Of a DNA stretch of 64,000 nt, positions 686 through 51,184 are shown piece after piece. The notes under the pieces are model-generated. The model was not told the origin of the DNA. It did not search any database and saw only the letters and a program-made list of their open reading frames with translations. Position 1 is the stretch's first letter. Each line of letters begins with the position of its first letter. The position numbers and the translations under genes were made by a program. The DNA lies in contig JAKALO010000001.1 in assembly GCA_021824125.1 (NCBI GenBank), forward strand, positions 9,722 to 73,721, given 5' to 3'. This stretch comes from Deltaproteobacteria bacterium. Its GTDB lineage: Bacteria; Desulfobacterota; Deferrimicrobia; Deferrimicrobiales; Deferrimicrobiaceae.

Positions 686-2251
686 TTACTTGAAGACCCC
701 GCGAACCTTGAGAAGATCGTTCAGGTAGGTGGTGTTGTCCGCGTACTTGAGCGCCTCTTCGTATTTCACTTTGCCTGCCGAGACCATCTCCGCCAGGTTC
801 CAGTCGATGCTGACCAGCTCTTCGGTGTTCGCCTGCATAAGACCGCGCATCTGGTTGACCTTCCCTTCCCGGATGGCGTTCCGGACGCGGAGCGACGTGC
901 CCATCTTCTCCCACGCGAGCGTCCTGCCGGGCCCGTTCGCCCGGCGCAGGAGCCTCTGGGAGAACACCAGGAGCAGACTCTCCGCCAGTTGCGCGCGGAT
1001 CTGGGGCTGCTGGTTCCCCGGGAAGATGTCGATGATACGGTCCACCGAGGCCGTCGCGCTGTTGGCATGCAGCGTTCCCATGACAAGGTGCCCCGTCTCC
1101 GCCGCCGTCAACGCGATGGAGATGCTCTCGTAGTCGCGCAGCTCTCCGATGACTATAACGTCCGGGTTCTGCCGGAAGATGTGCCGCAGGCCGTCGGCGA
1201 AGGACAGCGTGTCGTTCCCCACCTCCCGCTGGTTGATGTTCGAGTTCTTGTGCCGGTGCGTGAACTCTATCGGGTCCTCTATCGTTATGACGTTGGCCTT
1301 CCGTTCCCGGTTGACCACTTCCACCAGGTTGGCGAGCGTGGTGGATTTCCCGTGGCCGTTGGGTCCGCTGATCAGGATGAGCCCCTGCGTCTTGAGCGCG
1401 TATTCACGGAGAAAATCCGGCAGCCCGAGCTCGGCCGCGCTCGGGATGGAGTCCGCGACGTGCCTCGCGGTGAACGCGATTGAGCTTCGTTGCCTGTAGA
1501 GGTTGCAGCGGAAACGTGCCACTCCTTCGAGCGAGTAGGCGAAGTCGAGCTCCTTGAAGTCCTGGAACGTGCGCCTTTGCTCGGGGGTCATGATCTCGTG
1601 GATCATCTGCTCGATTTCCGCCGGCTTGAACGCGGGCAGGGACAGTCGCCGGATCTCGTTGTCGACGCGGATCGACGGGATGGCGCCCGCGGACAGGTGC
1701 AGGTCCTGGCCCTTCCAGGACACCAGCGCTTCAAGGAGGCTTTCCAGGGTCTTCTCCACCTTGACCCTCTTTCCGGTCGCCTTCTCGCCCTGGAGCTTCA
1801 GATTCACCGTGCCGTAGCCGTGGGTCTGGAAGAACGCGAGCGCCTTCTCGAAGTGGACCGCGGAGAGGATCACCGGCTTTGTGCTGTGTCCCGACTGGAA
1901 CTCCACGTCCGAAAGGGCGGAGAGGTCGGTCGGGTCCACCATCCCGATGACCAGGCGCTTCCCCTCGAACCCGATGGGCAGGAGACGCCGCAGGCGGACG
2001 GTTTCGAGCTGGACCAGCCGTTGTATCGAGGAGGGGACCTCCACCTTGTCCAGGTTGATGTGCTGCATTCCCATCTGCTCGGAAAGGGTGTTCAGTAGCG
2101 CTTCCTCGCTGAGAACCCCCAGCCGGATGAGGTTTTCCCCAAGCGTACCCCCGAGCTGGCGCTGGGTCTTGAGCGCCTGCTGAAGCTGCTCTTCCTGGAT
2201 CAGGCCCGCCGCAACCAGTATCTCGCCTATCTTCAGCTTTTTATCCGTCAT
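686..2251 (-). CDS. PilT-family type IV pilus retraction ATPase with an N-terminal MshEN (T2SSE_N) domain
   Basis: 521-aa ORF. The C-terminal two-thirds carry PilT/PilU hallmarks (Walker A GPNGHGKSTT, ITIEDPIEF, GHLVMGTLHANSA). The N-terminal ~140 aa contain two tandem MshEN-type motifs (KIGEILVAAGLIQEEQLQQALKTQ and LGENLIRLGVLSEEALLNTLSEQ). Confidence 0.85.
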   Translation of the reverse strand: MTDKKLKIGEILVAAGLIQEEQLQQALKTQRQLGGTLGENLIRLGVLSEEALLNTLSEQMGMQHINLDKVEVPSSIQRLVQLETVRLRRLLPIGFEGKRLVIGMVDPTDLSALSDVEFQSGHSTKPVILSAVHFEKALAFFQTHGYGTVNLKLQGEKATGKRVKVEKTLESLLEALVSWKGQDLHLSAGAIPSIRVDNEIRRLSLPAFKPAEIEQMIHEIMTPEQRRTFQDFKELDFAYSLEGVARFRCNLYRQRSSIAFTARHVADSIPSAAELGLPDFLREYALKTQGLILISGPNGHGKSTTLANLVEVVNRERKANVITIEDPIEFTHRHKNSNINQREVGNDTLSFADGLRHIFRQNPDVIVIGELRDYESISIALTAAETGHLVMGTLHANSATASVDRIIDIFPGNQQPQIRAQLAESLLLVFSQRLLRRANGPGRTLAWEKMGTSLRVRNAIREGKVNQMRGLMQANTEELVSIDWNLAEMVSAGKVKYEEALKYADNTTYLNDLLKVRGVFK

Positions 2252-2325
2252 GCTCCCCCCAACCGTATATTGCGCATAGTTTCCCTCAAATCTAACGCAG
2301 AGAGGGAAAAATGGGCAATATCAAT

Positions 2326-3129
2326 TTACTCCCTGTTCCGGGAGCACACCCGCGCAAGCGCGCACAAGTCGCATTCGCCCCTTTGTTTCACGGTGCACTC
2401 CTTCAGGATTCCGATACGCGTCAGCGCGAAATCGAACCGCACCGGGTCCTCCGGGCACACATCCCGGAAGGCGGCGGTGATTTCCTCCGCCATCTTCCAA
2501 TCCGCCGTGCGCCGGCGCGTCATCCCCAGCCAGCGCCCTATCCGGGCCATGTGCGTGTCGACGGGAACGATCAGGTCGCGGGCGGGAAATGCCGGCCAGA
2601 TCCCGAAGTCGACCCCGTCGTCCCCCCGGGCCATCCACCGCAGGAACAGGTTGTGGCGTTTGCAGGCCGAGCCCTTCAGGGGATCGGGGAACAGAAAGGA
2701 TCGTTGCCTGGGCAGGGAAGGCCCCCATGCCCCCCGGAATTCCCCGAGAAACCGCGCAAGCCGTTCGCGGGTCCCGGCCCCCGGGCCTTTCGTCCCTCGC
2801 AGGTACAGGGATTCCAGGCTCCCGTGCTCGAGGTACATCGCCCGCAGGCAGCCCAGAAAAAGTCGCACCCCCTCCGGTGATATGAACCGGTGCCCCAACC
2901 CGGAGAGGCGCCCCGGGAAGACCGGGCGCGGACCTGCGAGGGCGGCGTGCGGCGAAGGACCCAGCGCGGCGAACAGCCGCTCGAGAAAAGCCTTGATCTG
3001 GGGTACGTTCCCGAAGGCGAACGACGCGGCGATGAAGGCGGACGACTCGATGTCCTCCCGCGAGCTATAGCGGTGGGGAAACATGACGGGATCGGAGGAA
3101 TGCGGCGCCGACCCGTGGGCGGCCAGCAC
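2326..3129 (-). CDS. TIGR02757 / DUF2400 family conserved hypothetical protein
   Basis: The C-terminal ~270 aa of a long minus-strand reading frame match the DUF2400 pattern (DPVMFPHRY...FIAASFAFGNVPQI...DTHMARIGRWLG). The frame upstream of ~3170 is an artefactual extension through hisG in another frame. The start is uncertain; candidates are GTG at 3129 or ATG at 3084, both weakly supported. Confidence 0.55.
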   Translation of the reverse strand: MLAAHGSAPHSSDPVMFPHRYSSREDIESSAFIAASFAFGNVPQIKAFLERLFAALGPSPHAALAGPRPVFPGRLSGLGHRFISPEGVRLFLGCLRAMYLEHGSLESLYLRGTKGPGAGTRERLARFLGEFRGAWGPSLPRQRSFLFPDPLKGSACKRHNLFLRWMARGDDGVDFGIWPAFPARDLIVPVDTHMARIGRWLGMTRRRTADWKMAEEITAAFRDVCPEDPVRFDFALTRIGILKECTVKQRGECDLCALARVCSRNRE

Positions 3130-3164
3130 CGCATTGAGCGCTTTTACGAGAGGAGCCGGGGCCG

Positions 3165-4052
3165 TTACGGTATCACCTTGTTCAACGGGTACTCGACGAT
3201 CCCGGACGCGCCAGTCTTCTTCAGCACGGGGATGAGCTCCCGGACGGTTTTCTCGTCCACGATCACCTCGAGGCTGAACCACCCGGCCTCGCTCAGGGAC
3301 GATATCGTCGGATTCTGAAGGGCCGGCAGCACCTTGATCACCCGTTCGAGGTCGGCGCGGGAGACGTTCATCTTCAGCCCCACCTTCTCCATCGCCCGGA
3401 GCGCGCCTGTGAGCAGCATGGCGATGTTCTCCATCTTCTGCCTTTTCCAGGGCTGCCTCCACGCATCCCGGTTCGCGATAAGCACGGTGGTCGACTCCAG
3501 GATCGTGTCGACGATCCGCAGGTTGTTCGCGTGCAGGGAACTGCCCGTCTCGGTCAGCTCGACGATCGCGTCCGCGAGCCGGGGCGCCTTGACTTCGGTC
3601 GCCCCCCATGAAAACTCCACCCGCGCGTTCACCTTCCTGCCCTTGAGGAAGCGGCGGGTGTACTGCACAAGCTCGGTGGCCACCCGCTTTCCCCGCAGGT
3701 CCTCGATGCGCCGGATCGGGGAGTCGTTCGGAACGGCCACGACCCACCGGACGGGGCGGAGCCCACCCTTGGCGTACTGGAGGGTGCACACCTCCTTGAC
3801 CTTCGCGTTCTGCTCCAGGACCCAGTCCCGCCCCGTCAGGCCGAGGTCGAGGATCCCGTCCTGGACGTAACGCGCCATCTCCTGTGCGCGGATCAGGAGC
3901 CCCGACAGCTCCTGGTCGTCGATTGACGGTATGTAGCTGCGGGACCCCACGGTAATCGTGAACCCGGCCTTGCGAAACAGGTTCAGCGTCGAATCCTGCA
4001 GGCTGCCCTTGGGCAACCCGATGCTCAGTACCTTGCGGGACGATTCCTTCAT
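3165..4052 (-). CDS. hisG: ATP phosphoribosyltransferase, long form with C-terminal regulatory domain
   Basis: 295-aa ORF ([19 protein letters not shown]...) with a HisG catalytic fold and a C-terminal regulatory domain. Confidence 0.9.
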
Positions 4053-4143
4053 GTCGTTCCTTCCTTGAAACGTGAAAAGCGCATTCTACTTTCGCGGATG
4101 CGCCAAGGCAACCTGGAATCGGGAGTCGCCGCGGACTGTCCAC

Positions 4144-5799
4144 CTACGGAGGGCATGGCTCCGTCGGGGATTTCGCCGCCGTGGACGGTTCCCCCGGCAC
4201 TCCGCCGATCTTGCGGATCGCATCCTCGGCGGCCTTCCGGACCTGGGGGTCCTTGTCGGCCAGGAGGTCACGGAGGGGGCGCATAACGCGGGTGAACCCG
4301 ACCTCCCCCAGCGCGGACGCCGCGCGGGCGCGAACCGCCGGGTTGTCGTCCTGGAGCGAGAGGAGAAGGGGTTCGACGACCACTTCACCCATCTGGGAAA
4401 GGACGAAGCTGGCGACGAAGCCTACCCGCTCGTCGGCCAGTAGGCGGATCAGCGGGTATATGGCCCTCGTGTCCTTGATCTGCCTCATGGTGCACAACGA
4501 GGCGATCCGTGTTCCGATGTCCTCCTCCTTGTTAAGGGTTTCAAGGCACCCCTCGAGCACCCGGTCACCCATCCCCTCGAGCACGTACTGCTTCCAGTAG
4601 TCGAGCTCCGGATCGTTGCTTCTGCGCAGCAGGGGGCGGAGGTTCGCGTCCCCGAACTGCCGGAGCGCCATGATGCATAGCCACCTGATCTCCGGGTCTC
4701 CGAGCCCGTTGACCAGTCCTTCGACCGACGCCGGGTCCGCGATCGCCATAAGGGCGGCGACCGTGGAGACCTTGACATCCGGGGAAGGGTCACGCAGCAC
4801 CTCGAGGAGAATGGGCATCGCCGCGCGGTATTTGCTCTTCCGGATCGACGTCGCGGCGCCGATCTTCTGCAGGACGTTCCCGCCGCGAAGCATCCGGAAG
4901 AGGATCGGGCGGCCCGCGTCGGGCATCCGCGCGAAGGCCTCTGTGGCCGCCTCGCGGACATTCGGATCGTTGTCGTCCAGGTAGGAGGCCACGTCCTCAA
5001 GTATGGACGGGTCCGCCGTCTCCCCCAGGGTAAGGCAGGCGTAATACCGCACCAGCGGTGAAGGGTCGGAAAGGATCTTGCGAAGGTAGAGCAGCGTTTC
5101 CCTGGTGCCCATGGCCCCCAGGGCGCGGATCGCCCCGACCCGTATGTCGACGTTCCCGTAGGAAAGGAGGGAGGTCAGGGCCGCGGTCGCGTCCTCCCCG
5201 AACTTGGGCAGGGACTCGATCGCCGCGTCGCGGACCGACGGGTAGACGCTGTCGACTTTCGCCATGACCAGCCGCAGCCCCCCCTCGCCCCCGAACTGGG
5301 CGACGGTCTGGATCGCCTGGACCTGGACCGACGGGTCCGAATCGTTGAGCGCGGCCTGGATGGATGGGGCAGCGGCCCGGGCGTCGAGCTGCCTCAGGAT
5401 GAAGAGGGCGTTCCGGCGGACGACCGGATTATTATGCTTCAGGGCAAGCACGGTCTTTCGGACGGATTCGTTGCCTATATTGATGAGCGCGCCGCTCGCG
5501 AGCCATCGAACCTCCTCGCTGTCGAGCGCCCCTATCAGCGTGTCCACCGATGCGGGGCCGAGGTCCACGAGGCGTTTCATGGCGTGGCTTCGAACGGCCA
5601 GGTCCCGGTCCTTCAGGAACGGCAGTATCTCCTTCGCCGCCTCCGTGCCCCCCTTGTCGAAGAGCACGTCGATCGCCTGCGTTTTCTCCTTCTGTGCGTC
5701 CTCCATCGGGATTTCCGCGCGCAGAATCGTGGAAGCCGAAAACAGGGACAGAAATAACACAAGCGGGAACGACAGGTGCAATCGGGCGCTTCGGTACAA
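4144..5799 (-). CDS. Secreted HEAT-repeat (PBS lyase HEAT-like) protein
   Basis: 551-aa ORF with an N-terminal signal peptide (LSFPLVLFLSLFSASTILRA). It contains more than ten repeats of the DPxxxVRxxAxxALG type typical of HEAT/PBS-lyase repeats. Confidence 0.7.
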   Translation of the reverse strand: MYRSARLHLSFPLVLFLSLFSASTILRAEIPMEDAQKEKTQAIDVLFDKGGTEAAKEILPFLKDRDLAVRSHAMKRLVDLGPASVDTLIGALDSEEVRWLASGALINIGNESVRKTVLALKHNNPVVRRNALFILRQLDARAAAPSIQAALNDSDPSVQVQAIQTVAQFGGEGGLRLVMAKVDSVYPSVRDAAIESLPKFGEDATAALTSLLSYGNVDIRVGAIRALGAMGTRETLLYLRKILSDPSPLVRYYACLTLGETADPSILEDVASYLDDNDPNVREAATEAFARMPDAGRPILFRMLRGGNVLQKIGAATSIRKSKYRAAMPILLEVLRDPSPDVKVSTVAALMAIADPASVEGLVNGLGDPEIRWLCIMALRQFGDANLRPLLRRSNDPELDYWKQYVLEGMGDRVLEGCLETLNKEEDIGTRIASLCTMRQIKDTRAIYPLIRLLADERVGFVASFVLSQMGEVVVEPLLLSLQDDNPAVRARAASALGEVGFTRVMRPLRDLLADKDPQVRKAAEDAIRKIGGVPGEPSTAAKSPTEPCPP

Positions 5800-5951: not shown

Positions 5952-6773
5952 ATGGAACGCCTCGACACCTTGATCCTCTTCGGGAAAGCCCCCGTTCCCG
6001 GAACGGTAAAGACCAGGCTTTGCCCCCCTTTGTCGCCACGGGAAGCGGCCGGGCTTTACTCCTGCCTCCTGGAAGACGCCGCGGAAGAAGCCGGAAGACT
6101 CCGGGGGGTCCGCCGTTACATCTTCTTTGCCCCCCCGGAAGGCGAAGCCTACTTCCGCGCGGGAACATTCTCCGCCTTTCACATTCGTCCGCAGGCCGGG
6201 TCGGATCTCGGGGAACGGATGGAGAGGGCCACGCTGGCGGCGTTCGCCGGCGGGGCGCGCAGAGTGGTGGTCATCGGCGCCGATTGCCCCGCGCTGTCCG
6301 GAGGTATCATCCGTTCAGCCTTCCGTGAACTGTCGAACGCCGCCGGGGCGGTGTTCGGCCCCGCCGAGGACGGGGGGTACTACCTCGTCGGCCTTGGCGA
6401 GCCCGCCCCTTTCCTGTTCCGGGGAATCGAGTGGGGCTCCCCAACGGTTCTTGCGACATCCCTCTCGCGATGCCGGGATGCCGGGATCCCTTACGCCCTG
6501 CTGCCCGGCAAATCCGATGTGGACACCGCGGAGGACCTGGTGTCGCTCAGACGCTGGGCCCGCGCCCACGCCCGGCCCCCCTGCCCCCGGACGCGGTCAT
6601 GGCTTAAGAACTTCCTTCCGGCGATCACCTGCTCCGGGAGCGCGGTCTCGTTGCCGCGCCCGGACGAATCAGGGTCCGCCCCATCCCCAGGTCGACGATC
6701 TCGCTCCGCAGGATCACCTCCTTCAACCCTTTGCGTGGGACCTCGATCCCGAAGCTTCCGGTTTCCCCGTTGA
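5952..6773 (+). CDS. DUF2064 family protein (2-phospho-L-lactate guanylyltransferase-like fold)
   Basis: ATG at 5952 (MERLDTLILFGKAPVPGTVKTRL...VVVIGADCP...DGGYYLVGL...DVDTAEDL). The last ~60 aa are low-complexity and overlap the convergent gene at 6625-7305 by 149 bp. The true C-terminus may be affected by a frameshift. Confidence 0.65.
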   Translation: MERLDTLILFGKAPVPGTVKTRLCPPLSPREAAGLYSCLLEDAAEEAGRLRGVRRYIFFAPPEGEAYFRAGTFSAFHIRPQAGSDLGERMERATLAAFAGGARRVVVIGADCPALSGGIIRSAFRELSNAAGAVFGPAEDGGYYLVGLGEPAPFLFRGIEWGSPTVLATSLSRCRDAGIPYALLPGKSDVDTAEDLVSLRRWARAHARPPCPRTRSWLKNFLPAITCSGSAVSLPRPDESGSAPSPGRRSRSAGSPPSTLCVGPRSRSFRFPR

Positions 6774-7305
6774 GCAGCGCCCCCTCTCCCATAAATTCGG
6801 ACTTCGGGAAAAACGTTTTTTTCTCCCGCCGGCCGTCACGGTAGACGATCTCCACCACGACGCCGATCGACTTGAGGGACAGGTCGGGGACATCCTCCCC
6901 CTTGTTCGTCACCATCACGGAGAGAAGGACGCCCTTGTCCACTTTTTCCTGCTTCACCTCGATGGGAAGCTCCGGGTTCGGAACGACGGTCACCTTGTGC
7001 CCGACCCAAACCCCGTAGACGAGGAACAGGAGGAGGAAGGCGGCCAGCAGGGGACCGGCCACCTTGATCCACTTTCCGTGGAGGACCCACAGGTCGGCAA
7101 GGTACTCGATCCTGACCTTGCCTCGAAGGAGATTCCGGAAATCATCCTCTTTCCGCCTCGCGCGGGAAACGGCCGGCTTCCCCGAGGGGGGCAGGGCATG
7201 CTTGCAGTGCGGGCACACGGCTTCGGCCGCCGCGATCTGTATGGTGCAATACGGACAGGAGATGAACTCCTGGTCCTCCGTCGAAAGCCCGGCCTTCTTC
7301 TTCAC
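6625..7305 (-). CDS. Zinc-ribbon (MJ0042-like) single-pass membrane protein with a C-terminal beta-rich domain
   Basis: GTG start at 7305 preceded by AAAGGCGGA and lying 17 nt after the pepA stop. CPYC...CPHCKH zinc ribbon, one TM helix (VAGPLLAAFLLLFLVYGVWV), then an extracytoplasmic domain. The upstream extension to 7431 in the ORF track overlaps pepA and is rejected. Confidence 0.5.
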   Translation of the reverse strand: MKKKAGLSTEDQEFISCPYCTIQIAAAEAVCPHCKHALPPSGKPAVSRARRKEDDFRNLLRGKVRIEYLADLWVLHGKWIKVAGPLLAAFLLLFLVYGVWVGHKVTVVPNPELPIEVKQEKVDKGVLLSVMVTNKGEDVPDLSLKSIGVVVEIVYRDGRREKKTFFPKSEFMGEGALLNGETGSFGIEVPRKGLKEVILRSEIVDLGMGRTLIRPGAATRPRSRSR

Positions 7306-7321
7306 GGACGTCCGCCTTTGA

Positions 7322-8848
7322 TCATTGGGCCCGCTTCCTTCCCTCCTGCGACAGGAACTCGACGATGAGCCGCACCGGGGCGCCGGTAGGGCCCGGGGCG
7401 TACCCCATCCTTTCCTTCTCACGCCACGCAACGCCGGCGATGTCCAGGTGAACCCAGGGGGTGTCTCCGGCGAACTCCTTCAGAAAACAGGCGGCGGTGA
7501 TCGTGCCCGCCTCCGGTCCGCCGATATTCTTGAGGTCACCGATTTCGCTTTTGATCTGCTCGAAATACTCCTCGTGGAGCGGCAGCTCCCAGGCCTTCTC
7601 GCCGGACACCCCGGACGCCTCCTTAATCATGGAGAGAAGCTTTCCGTCGTTCCCGATCATGCCCATCGTCACGCTTCCCAACGCCACGACGCACGCACCG
7701 GTAAGCGTCGCCGCGTCGACCATCGCGGCCGGGCGGTACCGCTTCTTCGCCCAGGCCATGGCGTCCGCAAGGATGAGCCTCCCTTCCGCGTCCGTGGAGA
7801 GCACCTCGACCGTTTTCCCCGACATCATCCGGATGACGTCACCCGGCCGGTAGGCGGCGCCGGAAGGCATGTTCTCCACCGCCGGCACCACGGCGACGAC
7901 GTTTACCGGTATCCCGACTGCGGCGGCGGCGCGGACCGCGCCCAGCATCCCCGCCCCCCCGGCCATGTCGTACTTCATCTTTTCCATCCCCTCCCACTTC
8001 TTCAGGGAGATTCCGCCCGTATCGAATGTGACCCCCTTACCGACAAGCGCCGTCCAGGGCCCCCCGGGACGCCCACCGCGGAACTCCGCGACGATGAGTC
8101 GCGGGGGAGCATCGCTCCCCTTGCCGACAGCCAGGATCCCGCCCATACCCCACGCCTCGATCTCCTTTTTCCCGAACACCCGGACGCGGATCTTTTTCGC
8201 CGCAGCGGTACCAAGCCCTTTCGCCAGCGCCTTGGCGGCGCGGGCCAGCCCGTCAGGCCGCAGATCCCCGGGCGGAGAGGAAACAAGGTTCCGCGCCCAG
8301 TTGACCGCCTCTCCGACGCGGGCGCCATATTCAAGCCCTTTCCTGATGGGGGATGCGAGCAACCGGTTGTTCTCGACCAGCCGGAACCGCCCCACCCGGT
8401 TCTCCTTCTCCGACTTGTAGCGGTCGTACTCGTAATTGGACAGCGCCGCGCCGAGCGCGGCGAACCGCGCAGCGGCCTCCGGGTCCAAACCTCCGATCCC
8501 GGCGCCGTGAAGCACCGAAGCCACGGTCGCAAGCTTCAGCTTCCTCGCCAGCCGCACCACCGGAAGCGCGGCCTGCCGGACCAGGTCCAGTGAGAACTTT
8601 TCCTTTTTCCCGAGACCGAGGACCAGCACGCGGGGCGAGGCGACCCCCTTCACGGGGCGCAGGAGAAGCGTCTCCCCCCATTTACCCTGAAAGTCGCCGT
8701 CCCGTATCGCCGCGGTAATCGCGCCCTCGAGCGCCGCGTCCACCGCGCCGGTCGCGCCACCCGGTCTCTTCACTCCCTCGAAGAGGTTCACCACCACCAT
8801 ATCGGCCTTGTGCCGGACGATGTCCCCCATGACCAGTTCTATCTTCAA
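7322..8848 (-). CDS. pepA: Leucyl aminopeptidase (M17 family)
   Basis: M17 signature region (NTDAEGRL, VGKGVTFDTGG). The likely start is TTG at 8848 (MKIELVMGDIV...) with GGGAG upstream. The ORF track extends it to 8914. Confidence 0.85.
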   Translation of the reverse strand: MKIELVMGDIVRHKADMVVVNLFEGVKRPGGATGAVDAALEGAITAAIRDGDFQGKWGETLLLRPVKGVASPRVLVLGLGKKEKFSLDLVRQAALPVVRLARKLKLATVASVLHGAGIGGLDPEAAARFAALGAALSNYEYDRYKSEKENRVGRFRLVENNRLLASPIRKGLEYGARVGEAVNWARNLVSSPPGDLRPDGLARAAKALAKGLGTAAAKKIRVRVFGKKEIEAWGMGGILAVGKGSDAPPRLIVAEFRGGRPGGPWTALVGKGVTFDTGGISLKKWEGMEKMKYDMAGGAGMLGAVRAAAAVGIPVNVVAVVPAVENMPSGAAYRPGDVIRMMSGKTVEVLSTDAEGRLILADAMAWAKKRYRPAAMVDAATLTGACVVALGSVTMGMIGNDGKLLSMIKEASGVSGEKAWELPLHEEYFEQIKSEIGDLKNIGGPEAGTITAACFLKEFAGDTPWVHLDIAGVAWREKERMGYAPGPTGAPVRLIVEFLSQEGRKRAQ

Positions 8849-8942
8849 TTTACACGCTCCCGTCCGCGACGATGCGCCTCCCTGCAAATTATGGGGCCAA
8901 CGGATGGTTGTCAAGGATAGATGAAGAGGAAATCACGGACGG

Positions 8943-23195: not shown

Positions 23196-24740
23196 ATGAC
23201 GGAAGGCGAACTCATAGGACGAATCACCCGGGCGATCGCTGAACTCGCCAAGGGGATGAAAAGCGTGGGCTTCTACCCTCCGGGGCACCCGACGCTGATA
23301 CAGATCATCTCCAAGATCATTTCGAATTTCGAGGAAATCCCGCTTCCGGAGGCCGGCCTTGAAATAGACGTGACCAGGAACGCCCTTCTGTTCCAGGACA
23401 CTCCGCTCCCCGCGCCGAACAAGACAGTGATCGACCTGAACAGGGAACTCTACATAAGGCAGGCCAGCAAGATCATCTTCCTGCCCAACCTGAAGCCCAG
23501 CGAGATGGTCGAGTTCCTGGGGATCCTTTCCCGCGACATCCAGGAGATCCAGGACGAAGGGGGGATCGAGCGATTGCTCCTCCGGAAGAAAGTCTCCCGG
23601 ATCTGGGCGAACCGTGTGGACTACCTGGGATTGACGGAAATGCTGAAAAAAGAGGAGGCCGGATCCGAAGACCCCGAAGGCGACGGCATGGAAAACGGCG
23701 AACTCCAGGATTCCCTCGATGACATCGCTCCCGAGGAATTGACCATAGGGGACATCATCTCGATGATCGAGAAGGAGTCCGACCCCGTTGCCTACCGCGA
23801 CCACCTGATCGCCCTTTCCCGCGCCCTGTACAACGAGCGCATGGACCGGAAGATAGAACACGCCTCCCGTGCGCTCATGATCTTCGCGGGCCACGTCCAG
23901 CAGCCGCCGATGCAGAATCCGGAGATCGCCAATCTCGCGCGACTCGGGATCAAGGAGATGGCGTCGGACGAGCTGGTCGCCCATTACATCCATCTTCTCC
24001 GGGACAAGGGCGGAAAGGGCCGAAGGGAGGTGGAGACCGTGCTCACGGCGTTCGAGGACCGCGCCGTGAAACCGCTCCTGAAGACGCTTGCGGACGAGGA
24101 GGACCTTCTCCTGCGGAAATCGATCGTCGAGATCGTCGTCAGGATCGGCAGGCCCGCGGTTCCCGCCATCCTCGAGAACCTGAACGATGCCCGGTGGTTC
24201 ATGGTCCGGAACATGGTGACGATCCTGGGGAGCCTCGGCCTCCCGGACCTCGCCCCGCACGTGGCGACAACCCTGTCGCATCCCGATCTTCGCGTCAAGA
24301 AGGAGGCGATCAAGGCCCTTTCCAAGCTCCCCCACCCTTCCGCGGTCACCTCCCTGGGGGAGCTCTGCTTCTTCCCGGAGGAGACCGTGGCGCTCACAGC
24401 CACCGCGGCCATGTCCGCCAAGAAGGAGTCCGAGGCCGTCCTGACGCTTTACAGGCGGGCGGTCGAGAAACGGTTCTTTTTCCCCAACTACCGGCTCGCA
24501 CACGAGGCGATCGACTCGCTGAGGACGATCGGCACCGACGAGGCGATCACCGCCCTGGAGGAGATTCTTAGAACGTCGGCGATCCGGGAGACGCAACGAT
24601 TGCGCGCGATGAAATCCCACGCGCTGAGAAGCATCTCAAAGATACGGGGGGAAAAAGCCAGGGAAGCGCTCCAACGTTGCGCCAAGGCCCCGGAGGGATA
24701 CCTGAGGATGGAAGCGGAGCGTCTTTTAAAGGTCACATAG
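23196..24740 (+). CDS. Protein with a DUF3391-like N-terminal domain fused to C-terminal HEAT repeats
   Basis: 514 aa. The N-terminal ~130 aa align with the N-terminus of the adjacent HD-GYP protein. The C-terminal half has PBS-lyase-type HEAT repeats. Confidence 0.6.
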   Translation: MTEGELIGRITRAIAELAKGMKSVGFYPPGHPTLIQIISKIISNFEEIPLPEAGLEIDVTRNALLFQDTPLPAPNKTVIDLNRELYIRQASKIIFLPNLKPSEMVEFLGILSRDIQEIQDEGGIERLLLRKKVSRIWANRVDYLGLTEMLKKEEAGSEDPEGDGMENGELQDSLDDIAPEELTIGDIISMIEKESDPVAYRDHLIALSRALYNERMDRKIEHASRALMIFAGHVQQPPMQNPEIANLARLGIKEMASDELVAHYIHLLRDKGGKGRREVETVLTAFEDRAVKPLLKTLADEEDLLLRKSIVEIVVRIGRPAVPAILENLNDARWFMVRNMVTILGSLGLPDLAPHVATTLSHPDLRVKKEAIKALSKLPHPSAVTSLGELCFFPEETVALTATAAMSAKKESEAVLTLYRRAVEKRFFFPNYRLAHEAIDSLRTIGTDEAITALEEILRTSAIRETQRLRAMKSHALRSISKIRGEKAREALQRCAKAPEGYLRMEAERLLKVT

Positions 24741-24750
24741 GGAGAGATCC

Positions 24751-26142
24751 ATGGACCGGCGCGAACAGGAACTTCTGATCACCAAGCTCATAAGGGCGCT
24801 CGGGACGTCCCTCAAGAACCGTGGGATATATCCCGCCACGCACCCCCAGGTGCGGAACCCCGTCGAAAAAATCCACCAGGACCTTCTCCTCTTTTTCGTC
24901 GACAGGAACGAACTGGTCCTCGTCATCACGGACGGCACGCTGGTCTTCGAGGGAGTCCCTATCTTCAGCCTGACCTCCTCCCTGGAAAACTTCATGGACC
25001 GCCTCGGCAGGATCGGGGTGCCCGCGATCATCTTCGACAAGGGTCTCACCGTGGGCGACATCGACACCTTCGTGAGATTCCTCCACGAAACCAGGGAACA
25101 GGGGCTGCCTCCGAAAAGGATCCAGGAACTCCTGGAACAGGCCGGGGCCGCCCACATACGGGTCAAGCCGATGGAGGAGGAGGAGGAGGACGACTACGCG
25201 ATAGCCCACCAGGTCTACGACAACGCCGTTTCCGTCGTGGTCTCGATCCTGCGGGACGTGCGCATGGGCCGGATACCCTCGGGAGCCGAGTCCGAACAGG
25301 TGGTCAAGGACATGAGCAGCATGCTCACGCGGAACCGTGACGCCATGCTCGCGCTGACGCTCATCAAGAACTACGACGAGTACACATACAACCACTCCGT
25401 CAACGTGGCCGTCCTATCCCTGGCCATCGCCGACGCCATGTCGCTTCCCGGCGAGACCAAGGTCGACGTTGGCGTCGCGGGGCTCCTGCACGACATCGGA
25501 AAAACGCAGCTTGCCCTGGAGCTCATCCGCAAGCCCGGAACGCTGAGCGTGAAGGAGTTCGAGGAGATCAAGAAACACCCGGACGAGGGGTTCCTCCTCC
25601 TCACGAAGATGTCCCACATCCGGCCGTCCTCCGCCTACATGGTCCTCGAGCACCACATGCGGTTCGACAAGACGGGGTATCCCCAACCCAACCCGGAACA
25701 TACCGTAAACCCCAACTCGAACATCATCCCGGTCGCCGACTGCTACGACGCGCTGACTACGATGCGCTCCTACCAGAAGGCCAGATATCCGCAACAGGCC
25801 CTCGATATCATGACGAAGATCGCCGGCAAGTCCCTCGACCCGGAAATCGTGTCCCTGTTCGTGAATACGATGGGCGCATACCCCGTGGGAACGATGGTCC
25901 GCCTGAACACCATGGAGATCGGCGTGGTATCGGGATCCGGGCGCGACGGAGAAAAAGGCCGGAAAGTCGTGGTGCTGTTCGACCGGGACGGGAAACCGCT
26001 CCCATGCCCGGAACAGGTGGATCTCGTCGAGGGGGGCAAGGCGACGGAAACGGACCAACGGGCCATCCTGGGAACGGTGAACCCGAACCTCTACCCGTCG
26101 ATGCCGAGCGAAAACCTGTTCCTCTCCGCCGCCCCCGCGTAA
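24751..26142 (+). CDS. HD-GYP domain c-di-GMP phosphodiesterase with a DUF3391-like N-terminal domain
   Basis: 463 aa. HD-GYP signature (HHMRFDKTGYPQ). Confidence 0.85.
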   Translation: MDRREQELLITKLIRALGTSLKNRGIYPATHPQVRNPVEKIHQDLLLFFVDRNELVLVITDGTLVFEGVPIFSLTSSLENFMDRLGRIGVPAIIFDKGLTVGDIDTFVRFLHETREQGLPPKRIQELLEQAGAAHIRVKPMEEEEEDDYAIAHQVYDNAVSVVVSILRDVRMGRIPSGAESEQVVKDMSSMLTRNRDAMLALTLIKNYDEYTYNHSVNVAVLSLAIADAMSLPGETKVDVGVAGLLHDIGKTQLALELIRKPGTLSVKEFEEIKKHPDEGFLLLTKMSHIRPSSAYMVLEHHMRFDKTGYPQPNPEHTVNPNSNIIPVADCYDALTTMRSYQKARYPQQALDIMTKIAGKSLDPEIVSLFVNTMGAYPVGTMVRLNTMEIGVVSGSGRDGEKGRKVVVLFDRDGKPLPCPEQVDLVEGGKATETDQRAILGTVNPNLYPSMPSENLFLSAAPA

Positions 26143-26185
26143 TCCCGCGTTCCACCAGGCCGGCCCGTAAGTCGGGCGAACGTGG

Positions 26186-26761
26186 TCAGGCGTCTCCGCG
26201 GCTCCACTCCGCAAGCGCGCAGGCAACCGAGGCCCTCACCGACTCGTTCTCCGCGTCGGCCTGCAGGAGCACCTTCTCCCACCCGTCTTTCCCCGCCGTG
26301 AGCGCGTACGCCACCACGGCCTTGCCGGCGACCTCGGGGTCGGGGTTGGCGAGGTACCTCTCGATGATGGGCGCCAATTCCTTCCGGCGTGATTTTCCGA
26401 GGGTCTCTAAGATGTTCCCGAGCACGACCCCCTGTTCGCGGGGAAGTCGATCGACGAGGGCCTTCAGGACCGGCACGGTGGGTGAAAACGCGAGCACGCG
26501 GGCGGCCGCCCCCCGGACCTCCGCTTCGCGGTCGGAAAGGGCGGCAAAAAGCAGGTAGACCCCCTCCGTGCCGCCGATGTCCTCGGCGGAGAAGACCACC
26601 CGCATGCGCTCTTCGAGTGTCCCCGTCCGCAGCGTCTGCAGGCAGGAGGGAACCGAACGCTTCGCGCGCAACCGGTCCATCGCGGCGGAAGCCGCTTCCC
26701 GCACCCCCGGTGAAGGGTCCGTCAGCAATTTCCGAAGAGTTTCCTCGATCCGGTCCACCAC
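26186..26761 (-). CDS. HEAT-repeat protein
   Basis: 191 aa with repeated DPxxxVRxxA motifs. GTG start. Confidence 0.55.
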   Translation of the reverse strand: MVDRIEETLRKLLTDPSPGVREAASAAMDRLRAKRSVPSCLQTLRTGTLEERMRVVFSAEDIGGTEGVYLLFAALSDREAEVRGAAARVLAFSPTVPVLKALVDRLPREQGVVLGNILETLGKSRRKELAPIIERYLANPDPEVAGKAVVAYALTAGKDGWEKVLLQADAENESVRASVACALAEWSRGDA

Positions 26762-26903
26762 GGCCTTTTCCCCCTTTCCGGGATGCGTATAGTCTTACCG
26801 GAGGCGGGCCGCTTCGTCAATCCGGCGCGGCGGGCGGTCATCCGTTCCACGGGTTGACGGTCCCACGGAAACGCACGTACACTCTCCTGCAGGGGGACGT
26901 GGA

Positions 26904-49083: not shown

Positions 49084-50003
49084 ACGGGGAGCTCCGTCTC
49101 GAAGGGCTGGCGATACCCCCGTGTTCCGTTCAGCAGCGGTTCCTCCGCTTCGCGCTCCTGATGTCGATCACCCTTCACGCAGCCGGCATTCTCACCTCCC
49201 CCTACTGGAACACGCGTCCGGCGGCGCGGGAGGAACTCATGATGGTCGACATCGCGGACATTCCGGCCGCGGAAATGCCGAAGATCCCCGAGATCCCGTT
49301 CACGGCGCCTCCGCCGCCCTCGCCGGCGGAAGCCCATCCCGCGCCGAAAGAGGCTGGCCCCCTCCCCGCGCAGCCGCCTCCGCCACCGACGCGCGAGATG
49401 ATACGGGAAAAGATCGCCACGCGCGGGCTCCTTAAGGTGCTATCCCCGGGAAAAGCCGGAGAGGCGGTCGCCGGCGCCGACCCGTTCGCAGGCATAAAGA
49501 TCCCGAGGGAAATCCGCGTCGCATCGAGGGAACCCGCCACGTCGAACGCATACGAGGTTTCCCGGCAGGATGCGGAGCCGCCCAGGGAAAAAGCCCACGG
49601 CATAGGCAACCAGGTGGCGTCGTCGACGCGGGCGGGCCGTGCCCTCTCCTCCCGGGTGTTCCGGACCGACGCGGGCCTGGAGGGCGAGATCAGCGGCGGG
49701 ATCGAGGACGAAAACCGCGACTCCGGGGTGATCGCGTCAACCGTAAGCCAGTACCGCAGCGGGATCAAATACGCCTACAACAAGGAACTCCTGAAAAACC
49801 CCTCCTTGAGCGGAAAGATCGTCGTGGCTTTCGTCATCCTGCCGAACGGTTCGGTGCAATCCGCGGAGATCCGCCAAAGCAGCGTAAACTGGCCTCCCCT
49901 CGAAGACGCCGTGCTGAAAAGGCTCCAGCACTGGAAATTCCCGAAATCGAAAGGGACCCCGGTGCGGGTCGTGTTTCCCTTCGTGTTCCATCCAGAGATG
50001 TGA
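49080..50003 (+). CDS. TonB C-terminal-domain protein (GltG/PglI/NfsG-like)
   Basis: 307 aa with an N-terminal TM helix, a Pro-rich spacer and a C-terminal TonB-C-like domain. Confidence 0.7.
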   Translation: MNGELRLEGLAIPPCSVQQRFLRFALLMSITLHAAGILTSPYWNTRPAAREELMMVDIADIPAAEMPKIPEIPFTAPPPPSPAEAHPAPKEAGPLPAQPPPPPTREMIREKIATRGLLKVLSPGKAGEAVAGADPFAGIKIPREIRVASREPATSNAYEVSRQDAEPPREKAHGIGNQVASSTRAGRALSSRVFRTDAGLEGEISGGIEDENRDSGVIASTVSQYRSGIKYAYNKELLKNPSLSGKIVVAFVILPNGSVQSAEIRQSSVNWPPLEDAVLKRLQHWKFPKSKGTPVRVVFPFVFHPEM

Positions 50004-51184
50004 CCGCCAGCGTGGAAAAGATCCGGGTCTACACCTGGTTTCCTGCCCTGGTCGTCCTTGCGGCCTTGTGTGCCGCGGACTTCCCCGCCCACGCCGCCGA
50101 TAAGCAGCGACCCGGCCGGAGCCGGAAGTCCCGGAAGGCCCCGCCAAGACCCGCGGTCGGGGGGGTGGCGGACTATTTCTTCGAGGACGCACCTCTCCCC
50201 GACTCCGTGACAGGGGTTCCGCCGGTCGAGGCGTCCGTGAGCGACGTGGATCAAGCACGCCCGTCCCCGGGCGGGCCGGTTCCGCCCCCTGCCTGCGACC
50301 GTACGCCGAATCCGTGCGAGCGCCTCTCGTGGGTCGAGCAGGTGATGTCGATCCGCGACCGGAAGGCGATCCCGCACCTCCGGGCGATGGCCGTCGACGA
50401 CGCCCACGAGCGCGTCCGTGAAAGGAGTCTGGGCGCCCTGGTGATCCTCGGGGACACCGGTGCGGCGCCTCTCTTCCTCGGCCGCCTCTCGGGCGACCCT
50501 TCCCCGGCGGTCAGGCGGGCCGCGGCCGAGGGGATCGGCCTGCTGAGGATACCCGTCCCCCCGGACAGCCTGGCGGAGCCGCTGATCAAGGATTCGAATC
50601 CGCTTGTCCGCGCCGAATGCGCCCGCGCGATCGGCCGGTCGGCCTTCGTCCAGGCGGGACCGGCACTCATGGTCGCCATCCTGAAGGACCCCTCCCCGGA
50701 AGTCCGGGCCCTCTCCGCAGAGGCGCTCGCCGGCATGAAGACCCCGTGGGGGACTGAAGCGCTGAAGCAGGCGGCGCGGGACGAGGACCCGATCGTACGC
50801 CTCTACGTCCTCCGGGGGCTCGTGGAATTCTCCCCGACCGCCGCCGGACCGCTGTTCAAGGAAGTGTGGGACACCACGAGCGACCCCGAGCTGCGCATCG
50901 AGGCCTTTCGCGGGCTCCTTCGCTCCGGGGAGGGGAAGAAGTGGAGCGAGTCCGGTCTCTCCGACAGCGATGCGCGGATCCGCTTCCTAGCCCTGCGGGA
51001 GTGGCTTTCAAACCTTAACTTCGATCCCCGGAATCCCTACACCCGCAACAACAACTTCCTCCCGCGGATCGAGCCGTTTCTCGCGGACTCCTCGCGGGGG
51101 ATCCGCGAACTCGCGAAGGGGTATCTCGAGAACCTGGGGTTCACGGTCCGCCAGTCCGGGTTCGTCTACATCCTCCAGAAGTAA
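50000..51184 (+). CDS. Secreted HEAT-repeat protein
   Basis: 394 aa, GTG start overlapping the upstream stop, signal peptide, multiple PBS-lyase HEAT-like repeats. Confidence 0.65.
   Translation: MTASVEKIRVYTWFPALVVLAALCAADFPAHAADKQRPGRSRKSRKAPPRPAVGGVADYFFEDAPLPDSVTGVPPVEASVSDVDQARPSPGGPVPPPACDRTPNPCERLSWVEQVMSIRDRKAIPHLRAMAVDDAHERVRERSLGALVILGDTGAAPLFLGRLSGDPSPAVRRAAAEGIGLLRIPVPPDSLAEPLIKDSNPLVRAECARAIGRSAFVQAGPALMVAILKDPSPEVRALSAEALAGMKTPWGTEALKQAARDEDPIVRLYVLRGLVEFSPTAAGPLFKEVWDTTSDPELRIEAFRGLLRSGEGKKWSESGLSDSDARIRFLALREWLSNLNFDPRNPYTRNNNFLPRIEPFLADSSRGIRELAKGYLENLGFTVRQSGFVYILQK

Follow-up and report, generated by a model that had tools for sequence, protein, structure and literature searches.

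A shared N-terminal domain in near-obligately paired HEAT-repeat and HD-GYP genes of a Deferrimicrobiaceae bacterium

This study concerns three neighbouring genes, here called A, B and C, in a 64,000-nucleotide stretch of DNA (the window) from a Deltaproteobacteria bacterium of the family Deferrimicrobiaceae (GenBank assembly GCA_021824125.1, contig JAKALO010000001.1, positions 9,722 to 73,721 of the forward strand). Gene A encodes a HEAT-repeat protein, gene B an HD-GYP protein and gene C a small HEAT-repeat protein. The proteins of A and B begin with homologous N-terminal domains (N-doms) that are not DUF3391, the two genes form a near-obligate and tightly coupled pair across genomes and metagenomes that represent many uncultured bacteria, the catalytic residues of B are conserved, and N-doms recur in pairs in other proteins and gene clusters. 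The reading favored here, which may well be correct and is given about even weight, is that the N-doms of A and B heterodimerise and thereby anchor a HEAT scaffold on a phosphodiesterase of cyclic di-GMP (c-di-GMP) that is catalytically competent.

HD-GYP phosphodiesterases are a less understood class of c-di-GMP-degrading enzymes. A census of HD-GYP proteins names REC, GAF, DUF3391, DUF3369 and membrane sensor domains, and it leaves many HD-GYPs with undefined N-terminal domains (10.1101/2021.11.05.467447). One such undefined domain is delimited here, and the proposed A-B complex offers a concrete hypothesis for how a c-di-GMP enzyme could be wired into a protein complex. What is new is the undescribed domain with its near-obligate HEAT partner, while the HD-GYP phosphodiesterase system itself is known; full-text searches of the open-access literature on HEAT repeats together with HD-GYP or c-di-GMP, and on DUF3391, turned up no account of the module. 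The pairing also supplies a functional context for thousands of genes annotated only as "HEAT repeat domain-containing protein", and cultured Geobacter and Geothermobacter relatives may offer experimental tractability.

The N-terminal domain shared by A and B

The original prediction had noticed that the first ~130 residues of the two proteins could be aligned, and four tests bear this out. In BLASTP, residues 10-123 of A matched residues 10-132 of B with 23% identity (E=6e-5), and the Smith-Waterman score of the two was 80 against 29.4+/-5.3 in shuffled sequences (z=9.5), a value reached by 0 of 2000 shuffles. Family alignments of A and B matched each other in hhalign over 101 columns (E=2.6e-5, probability 75%). 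The most decisive test used a hidden Markov model (HMM) built from 99 distant HEAT-type N-doms only, with the relatives of A, the relatives of B and all HD-type sequences left out. This HMM scored 137 bits on A, 85 bits on B (per-sequence E 2e-28) and 57-114 bits on all 11 HD-type representatives; it did not match C, which therefore lacks the domain. Chance similarity of the two N-termini is ruled out by the shuffle control and the HEAT-type-only HMM, and the N-doms of A and B are homologous. The predicted extent of residues ~5-130 captured a real N-terminal domain, but the HMM extends it slightly in both proteins (Table 1).

Ten columns are invariant in the joint alignment (L17, Y27, P28, H31, P32, K40, L64, L85, I94 and F107), and G122-G123 is nearly invariant across diverse members. 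An AlphaFold2 (AF2) model of residues 1-145 of B reached a predicted local distance difference test score (pLDDT) of 90.1 and a predicted template modelling score (pTM) of 0.85. Its helices (H) and strands (E) are H3-24, H32-48, E54-60, E63-66, E69-71, H76-88, E92-96, H101-113, H121-130 and E136-139, giving the predicted order alpha-alpha-beta-beta-beta-alpha-beta-alpha-alpha-beta. Pfam returned nothing above threshold over residues 1 to ~135 of either protein, and the domain had no match in Pfam-A (2025 copy) or NCBIfam 20.0. A search of the N-dom profile against PDB sequences at E<=10 gave nothing relevant, and a Foldseek search of the B model against the PDB gave no significant match, the best being the GAF-containing PelD (E 0.15, TM score 0.22). 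Identity with GAF was considered and rejected, as PelD and NlhH were the top Foldseek matches but only at E 0.15-0.7 and TM scores of 0.17-0.22, and Pfam gave no GAF match. N-dom is thus an alpha/beta domain of ~140 residues that is uncharacterised in the libraries searched.

The shared domain had been provisionally assigned to DUF3391 (PF11871), and this assignment did not survive. It would make N-dom a Bd1817-type domain that happens to be fused to HEAT repeats as well, which is now regarded as very improbable. Pfam did give a weak DUF3391 match in B (E=0.045, 14.7 bits), as in two relatives (P0029 and P0047), and N-dom sits where DUF3391 sits, N-terminal to HD-GYP. However, this match lies below the cutoff of 27.8 bits and is confined to the helical linker that follows the domain (residues 137-174; model positions 92-129 of 136). 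It appeared in 3 of 11 HD-type proteins, B included, whereas A and the other 8 HD-type relatives had no match, and at E<=1e-3 DUF3391 was found in 0 of 80 scanned members of the N-dom family.

The structure and architecture of the two domains differ as well. DUF3391 is the N-terminal domain of Bd1817 (PDB 3TM8) and consists of four beta-strands with a 3-10 helix and then a pair of long alpha-helices; its conserved residues are Gly12, Met14, Trp22, Phe29 and Phe35, and it occurs almost solely in the arrangement DUF3391-HD-GYP (10.1101/2021.11.05.467447). The predicted topology of N-dom instead starts with two helices, its conserved signature is Y-P-x-x-H-P, and its N-terminus shows no G-x-M...W pattern. 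N-dom is also carried mostly by HEAT proteins and has a near-obligate partner gene, unlike DUF3391. Members of the Bd1817 family (3TM8; PA4108, VC2497) do resemble B in having a cytoplasmic N-terminal domain of ~120-140 residues, a long helix and a C-terminal HD-GYP domain, and there is a weak likeness between the linker helix of B and the helices at the C-terminal end of the DUF3391 model. However, the N-terminal domains themselves share no sequence or structure match.

Pairing of the genes across genomes and metagenomes

Related sequence was found at 35 genome loci, mostly from Deferrimicrobiaceae or metagenome-assembled genomes (MAGs) labelled "Deltaproteobacteria", with A-type proteins at 58-88% identity to A. 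The gene order recA(-) cinA(-) pgpA(-), A(+) B(+) C(-), ruvX(+) mltG(+) was kept in these wherever the contig was long enough. A is 100% identical to a database protein (P0187) whose sole annotation is "HEAT repeat domain-containing protein", and the other named relatives carry that same annotation or are called hypothetical. Homolog searches using either N-dom by itself or a varied alignment returned mostly fragments or close Deferrimicrobiaceae relatives, with little taxonomic breadth. A metagenome scan with the pattern DxRWYVVRN, drawn from a 12-sequence alignment, found >589 relatives, of which 80 loci were kept and read by six-frame translation and by three HMMs made here, one each for N-dom, HD-GYP core and HEAT region.

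Among loci with enough downstream sequence to be evaluable, a same-strand gene for an N-dom-HD-GYP protein lay downstream of the N-dom-HEAT gene in 30/30 genome loci, 55/55 metagenome loci and 4/4 other loci (89/89 in all), a Geobacteraceae relative among them. Dereplication at 72% identity left 46 distinct A/B pairs. The distance from the stop of the A-type gene to the start of the B-type gene had a median of 1 nucleotide (nt), and 85 of 89 junctions overlapped or were <=30 nt apart, with start codons assigned heuristically. The arrangement reaches far beyond close relatives: in a Geothermobacter MAG (L036), the stop of the gene for a 744-aa N-dom-HEAT protein (aa, amino acids), which has ~25% identity to A, overlaps the start of the gene for a 391-aa N-dom-HD-GYP protein, and the arrangement recurs with a 728-aa distant relative (L037/L038). 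At L036 the N-dom-HEAT gene directly follows a co-directional gene (1997-4435) for an 812-aa P-loop protein (GPHGSGKST) that looks PrkA-like by eye.

The pairing was also seen from the other side. Four N-dom-HD-GYP proteins that were looked up independently (P0047, P0106, P0095 and P0157) were all preceded by a HEAT gene; at L124 (P0070) the upstream contig is too short to show one. The pairing rule was then challenged with three N-dom proteins in which Pfam finds no domain. Two of them (L129/L130 and L131) proved to be normal, if divergent, A-B pairs, and L128 supplied the one later exception, which is described below. The A-B gene pair is therefore near-obligate, and the two genes form a unit. 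A gene for a c-di-GMP receptor with PilZN1 and PilZ domains lies ~1.4 kb upstream of the divergent A-B pair on the opposite strand (L129 2518-3582, minus strand; L130 1152-2225, minus strand), which may be coincidental.

A further, weak hint of pairing comes from position 31 of the conserved motif, where the A and B partners carry H/H in 70 cases, N/N in 13, H/N in 4 and N/H in 0, which suggests that the residue co-varies between partners. The interchange of His and Asn at this position argues against a role as metal or haem ligand.

Pfam confirmed the HEAT repeats in both A (residues ~290-500; HEAT_2 7.8e-20, 71.4 bits against a cutoff of 27.7; HEAT_PBS 2.2e-10, 40.4 bits against 20.9) and C (HEAT_2 2.9e-15, 56.8 bits; HEAT 34.7 bits). 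In the HEAT region the signature L-x-D-x-R-W-[YF]-x-V-R-N-x3-[IL]-L-G is kept across 61 diverse HEAT-type relatives. Convergent with the HD-GYP gene and <=1 kb from it, there is a HEAT gene in 27/27 genome loci, 34/46 metagenome loci and 0/3 other loci (61/76), and the convergent C-like reading frames have a median length of 192 aa. The HMM of the A-type HEAT region also matches generic HEAT proteins, so the specificity of C was checked with a separate HMM of 35 metagenome C-like proteins. This C-like HMM matched C end-to-end with 149 bits, while its best single stretch reached 42.5 bits in the HEAT region of A and 50 bits in a generic 551-aa HEAT protein. On this evidence C is a specific third component that is frequent but not universal.

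The loci without C are largely of one kind. A clade of metagenome loci (L092-L117) lacks the convergent small HEAT gene at every evaluable locus and accounts for 11 of the 12 metagenome loci lacking C, the twelfth being L091, outside the clade. The motif takes the form Y-P-x-N-N-P in the HEAT proteins of this clade and H-x-x-x-N-x in their HD-GYP partners, and these loci may represent a subtype of their own. The spacing between C and ruvX also varies: it is ~1.1 kb in L002, L003, L005-L013, L020, L026, L028, L030, L032 and L034, and only ~150-200 bp in the window (26762-26903) and in other relatives. The larger gap in many Deferrimicrobiaceae relatives therefore points to an extra gene or insert there in some genomes.

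Two HEAT proteins acting together have a precedent. A and C gave weak NCBIfam matches to NblB, CpcE and CpcF, far below the cutoffs (for example 28.5 against 300 bits), and like these proteins they have repeats of the HEAT_PBS/HEAT_2 type. CpcE and CpcF are both HEAT proteins and function together as a heterodimer, and so provide a model for A and C acting together. However, there is no phycobilisome context here, and those families have no N-dom.

Catalytic domain of B and models for the A-B pair

B has clear Pfam matches to HD_5 (2.4e-24, 86.4 bits; cutoff 27.2) and HD (3.8e-11, 43.7 bits; cutoff 22), together spanning residues 204-366. Its catalytic motifs are D209-x-Y-T, H215, H247-D248-x-G-K, K261-P, H276-P, H300-H301, G-Y-P 308-310 and D329-x-Y-D-A, and the metal ligands typical of the HD superfamily (an acidic loop residue, H, HD, H, HH and D) are present. 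Against the PDB the catalytic core, and only this part, matched PmGH (4MCW, 1.6e-18) and V-cGAP3 (5Z7C, 7.4e-17), and the metal- and substrate-binding residues of both align with B. These positions are >=90% conserved in 83 full-length B-type relatives, where the motifs at this level are D-x-Y-T..H-S-V-N-V, H-D-x-G-K, K-P, H-P, H-H, G-Y-P and D-x-Y-D-A-x-T-x-R-x-Y; the K-P falls in the region of the Lys that contacts c-di-GMP. B is therefore taken here as a putative catalytically competent HD-GYP phosphodiesterase, with c-di-GMP as its presumed substrate. Some HD-GYPs act on other cyclic dinucleotides, and 5Z7C, the second-best PDB match of B, is a 3'3'-cGAMP phosphodiesterase. PmGH (GAF-HD-GYP) and V-cGAP3 have N-terminal domains unrelated to that of B and the motif HHE..DG.GYP where B has HHM..DK.GYP, and they do not share its C-terminal extension. 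This extension has no Pfam match, is absent from PmGH and follows the pattern G.yP.Gt.Vr L...E.g.v....v..l.d..G..l..p....l....r.I...v.P in the 83 relatives.

A profile search of 1.84 billion cluster representatives (clusters at 50% identity) put the N-dom family at 3705 proteins with a threshold of E<=1e-3, of which 648 also reach E<=1e-10. The domain is almost always at the N-terminus, and the protein lengths cluster at ~450-560 and ~710-760 aa. Pfam analysis of 80 N-dom proteins found HEAT_2 in 63 and HD_5/HD in 9, with rare combinations with MshEN/T2SSE, GGDEF and AAA. The fusions to GGDEF and to MshEN-ATPases provide a link to c-di-GMP that is independent of B, and together with the HD-GYP residues of B they support the c-di-GMP turnover context that had been proposed.

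Several of these rare architectures hold N-doms in twos. A 1438-aa Desulfobacterales protein (P0062; L120 967-5283), whose cluster counts 16 members with many at full length, is composed of GGDEF (24-180), AAA_16 (206-373), two N-doms (662-813 and 842-984) and HEAT repeats (~1279-1405); it is in effect a diguanylate cyclase fused to a HEAT-type partner. A 302-aa protein (P0044; L126 2797-3705, L127 866-1774) consists of only two tandem N-doms, and its gene lies directly upstream of one for an MshEN+T2SSE ATPase in a cluster that also has a prepilin peptidase and a T2SSF protein. At L121 two adjacent genes for PilB/MshE-like ATPases (2085-5645 and 6001-8874) each begin with an N-dom. The P0044 and L121 contexts link N-dom to c-di-GMP-responsive pilus or secretion motors. 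Paired N-doms resemble one another more than they do A- or B-type domains (32% identity in P0062, 53% between the L121 ATPases), so pairing arose several times by recent, independent duplication, as would be expected if the module functions in dimeric form. Tandem N-doms in a single chain thus serve as Rosetta-stone evidence that suggests N-dom:N-dom association, and all the paired contexts involve c-di-GMP proteins, namely a phosphodiesterase, a cyclase or an MshEN receptor.

These data suggest the following model, in which the region would be a conserved three-gene c-di-GMP signalling module. A and B would be co-transcribed and translationally coupled, so that near-equal amounts of both are made from one transcript, and their paralogous N-doms would pair as a pseudo-symmetric heterodimer. 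The HEAT solenoid of A would thereby be held stoichiometrically on B as a regulatory or targeting subunit and would position, gate or report hydrolysis of c-di-GMP by B, with C possibly a further HEAT partner. The near-obligate, coupled pairing at 89/89 loci is in keeping with the original proposal that the HEAT protein serves the HD-GYP enzyme as scaffold, adaptor or decoy, but such a role is still deduced from gene context. A comparable system is RpfG, a REC-HD-GYP protein that works by binding physically to other c-di-GMP proteins, among them GGDEF proteins, a PilZ adaptor and pilus motor ATPases. The fusions of N-dom to GGDEF and to PilB/MshE-like ATPases point to a similar network; however, RpfG is controlled by phosphorylation of its REC domain, whereas B has no REC domain and is partnered by a HEAT protein carrying the same N-terminal domain as the enzyme itself.

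Several observations weigh against this model. The canonical HD-GYP motif is HHExh(D/N)GxGYP (10.1101/2021.11.05.467447), and B has HHMRFDKTGYP, in which HH, D and GYP are kept but Met stands in place of the Glu and Lys in place of the first Gly; the family as a whole departs from the motif at these positions (consensus HH.r.dr.GYP). The lone exception to the pairing, at L128 (5001-7669), is an A-type gene followed by GMP synthase and no HD-GYP gene. It falls into two pieces, one of 463 aa with the N-dom and one of 434 aa with the HEAT repeats, and a Gly-rich low-complexity tail on the N-dom piece is suggestive of a frameshift. No HD-GYP was found in the ~1 kb available downstream of P0062. 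The N/N pairs at motif position 31 are largely one divergent clade, and the list of the top 150 family matches is skewed to the HEAT type because the query profile was richer in A-type sequences. The AF2 model of P0044 had a pTM of 0.55 and a pLDDT of 50-65 in domain 1, from a shallow alignment whose single-domain rows all fell on domain 2. Finally, adjacency of the genes and a common domain would also arise if both proteins sensed one ligand independently.

This last possibility amounts to an explanation of its own, in which the N-doms of A and B would each bind the same ligand independently and one signal would control both a HEAT output and c-di-GMP hydrolysis. N-dom does sit where GAF, REC and DUF3391 sensors sit in HD-GYP proteins, at the N-terminus and before a helical linker, its conserved polar loop Y-P-x-x-H/N-P might, together with G-G, provide a binding site for a ligand, and the top Foldseek matches, weak as they are, were GAF-type sensor domains. 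The reuse of N-dom with outputs as varied as HEAT, HD-GYP, a PilB-like ATPase and GGDEF-containing proteins is also what a sensor would show. However, parallel sensing leaves the occurrence of N-doms in twos and the near-obligate, coupled pairing of A and B unexplained, the resemblance to GAF is not significant, and a HEAT solenoid alone has no obvious signalling output. Parallel sensing is accordingly viewed as a possible but rather doubtful account.

A second explanation starts from the same common N-dom, paired occurrence and coupled expression as heterodimerisation does, and makes A a decoy. A would be a catalytically dead paralogue whose N-dom competes for the homodimerisation of B, so that A:B complexes are inactive and A titrates the phosphodiesterase. 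Activity of HD-GYP enzymes as dimers has been reported, and their N-terminal domains have been proposed to promote dimerisation (10.1101/2021.11.05.467447), which the decoy fits. However, a simple decoy has no need of a large conserved HEAT solenoid with its own signature D-x-R-W-Y-V-V-R-N, it leaves the conserved third HEAT gene unexplained, and translational coupling at ~1:1 would make B constitutively inhibited. A decoy role for A is thought unlikely on these grounds.

The heterodimer reading can be extended to the family as a whole, if only tentatively. N-dom might then be a new class of c-di-GMP-network adaptor that acts as an obligate pair, a composite unit, possibly with a nucleotide or signal site at the interface made from the Y-P-x-x-H/N-P loops, which would couple HD-GYP, GGDEF and MshE/PilB-like ATPases to HEAT scaffolds. 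If true, this would be a widespread and so far unrecognised mechanism for local c-di-GMP signalling. Membership in an anti-phage defence system was also considered and rejected, as PADLOC gave generic weak matches only (HEAT-ARM_XIII 15-25 bits; Cas3 HD 17-19 bits).

Gene layout and neighbouring sequence

The features of the region are listed in Table 1. All three open reading frames (ORFs) were found where the original prediction had placed them, with A and B adjacent and co-directional and C convergent. The stop of A and the start of B are 10 nt apart, and the placement of a Shine-Dalgarno-like GGAGAG between them is consistent with translational coupling. The GC content of the window is ~65%.

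Table 1. Coordinates of the A-B-C genes and their parts in the window
Feature	Coordinates	Strand	Description	Source
Gene A	23196..24740	+	514 aa; N-dom, linker and HEAT repeats	ORF
N-dom of A	23214..23657	+	aa 7-154; signature Y27-P28-x-x-H31-P32 and G122-G123	HMM
HEAT-repeat region of A	24051..24695	+	aa ~286-500; family signature as RWFMVRNM at aa 333-340	Pfam HEAT_2
Shine-Dalgarno-like GGAGAG	24741..24746	+	directly after the TAG stop of A, 4 nt before the ATG of B	
Gene B	24751..26142	+	463 aa; N-dom, helical linker, HD-GYP and short C-terminal extension	ORF
N-dom of B	24763..25179	+	aa 5-143; signature Y27-P28-A-T-H31-P32	HMM
Helical linker of B	25159..25272	+	aa ~137-174; only stretch matching DUF3391, sub-threshold	
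HD-GYP catalytic domain of B	25348..25893	+	aa ~200-381	alignment with PmGH and 83 B-type relatives
C-terminal extension of B	25903..26139	+	aa 385-463, ~80 residues	conserved in 83 relatives
Gene C	26186..26761	-	191 aa; small HEAT-repeat protein, convergent with B	ORF

The neighbours on both sides are housekeeping genes: pilT, recA, a 2H-phosphoesterase-like ORF, cinA-C and pgpA upstream of A, and ruvX, mltG, a dksA-like gene and rimO downstream. A terminator scan of the region gave nothing above the shuffled expectation, and in the promoter scan the sole promoter-like site near A overlaps its start codon.

Other HEAT-repeat proteins occur in the window. The ORF at 4144-5799 on the minus strand encodes a 551-aa protein with HEAT repeats throughout and an N-terminal segment resembling a signal peptide (MYRSARLHLSFPLVLFLSLFSASTILRAE). 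It scored 186 bits on the A-type HEAT HMM but has no N-dom, and was therefore rejected as a member of the module and regarded as a generic secreted HEAT protein. A stop-to-stop frame at 49436-51181 on the plus strand has a weak match to the HEAT region (E 2.5e-11, 38.6 bits). The genome region of the window seems rich in HEAT-repeat proteins.

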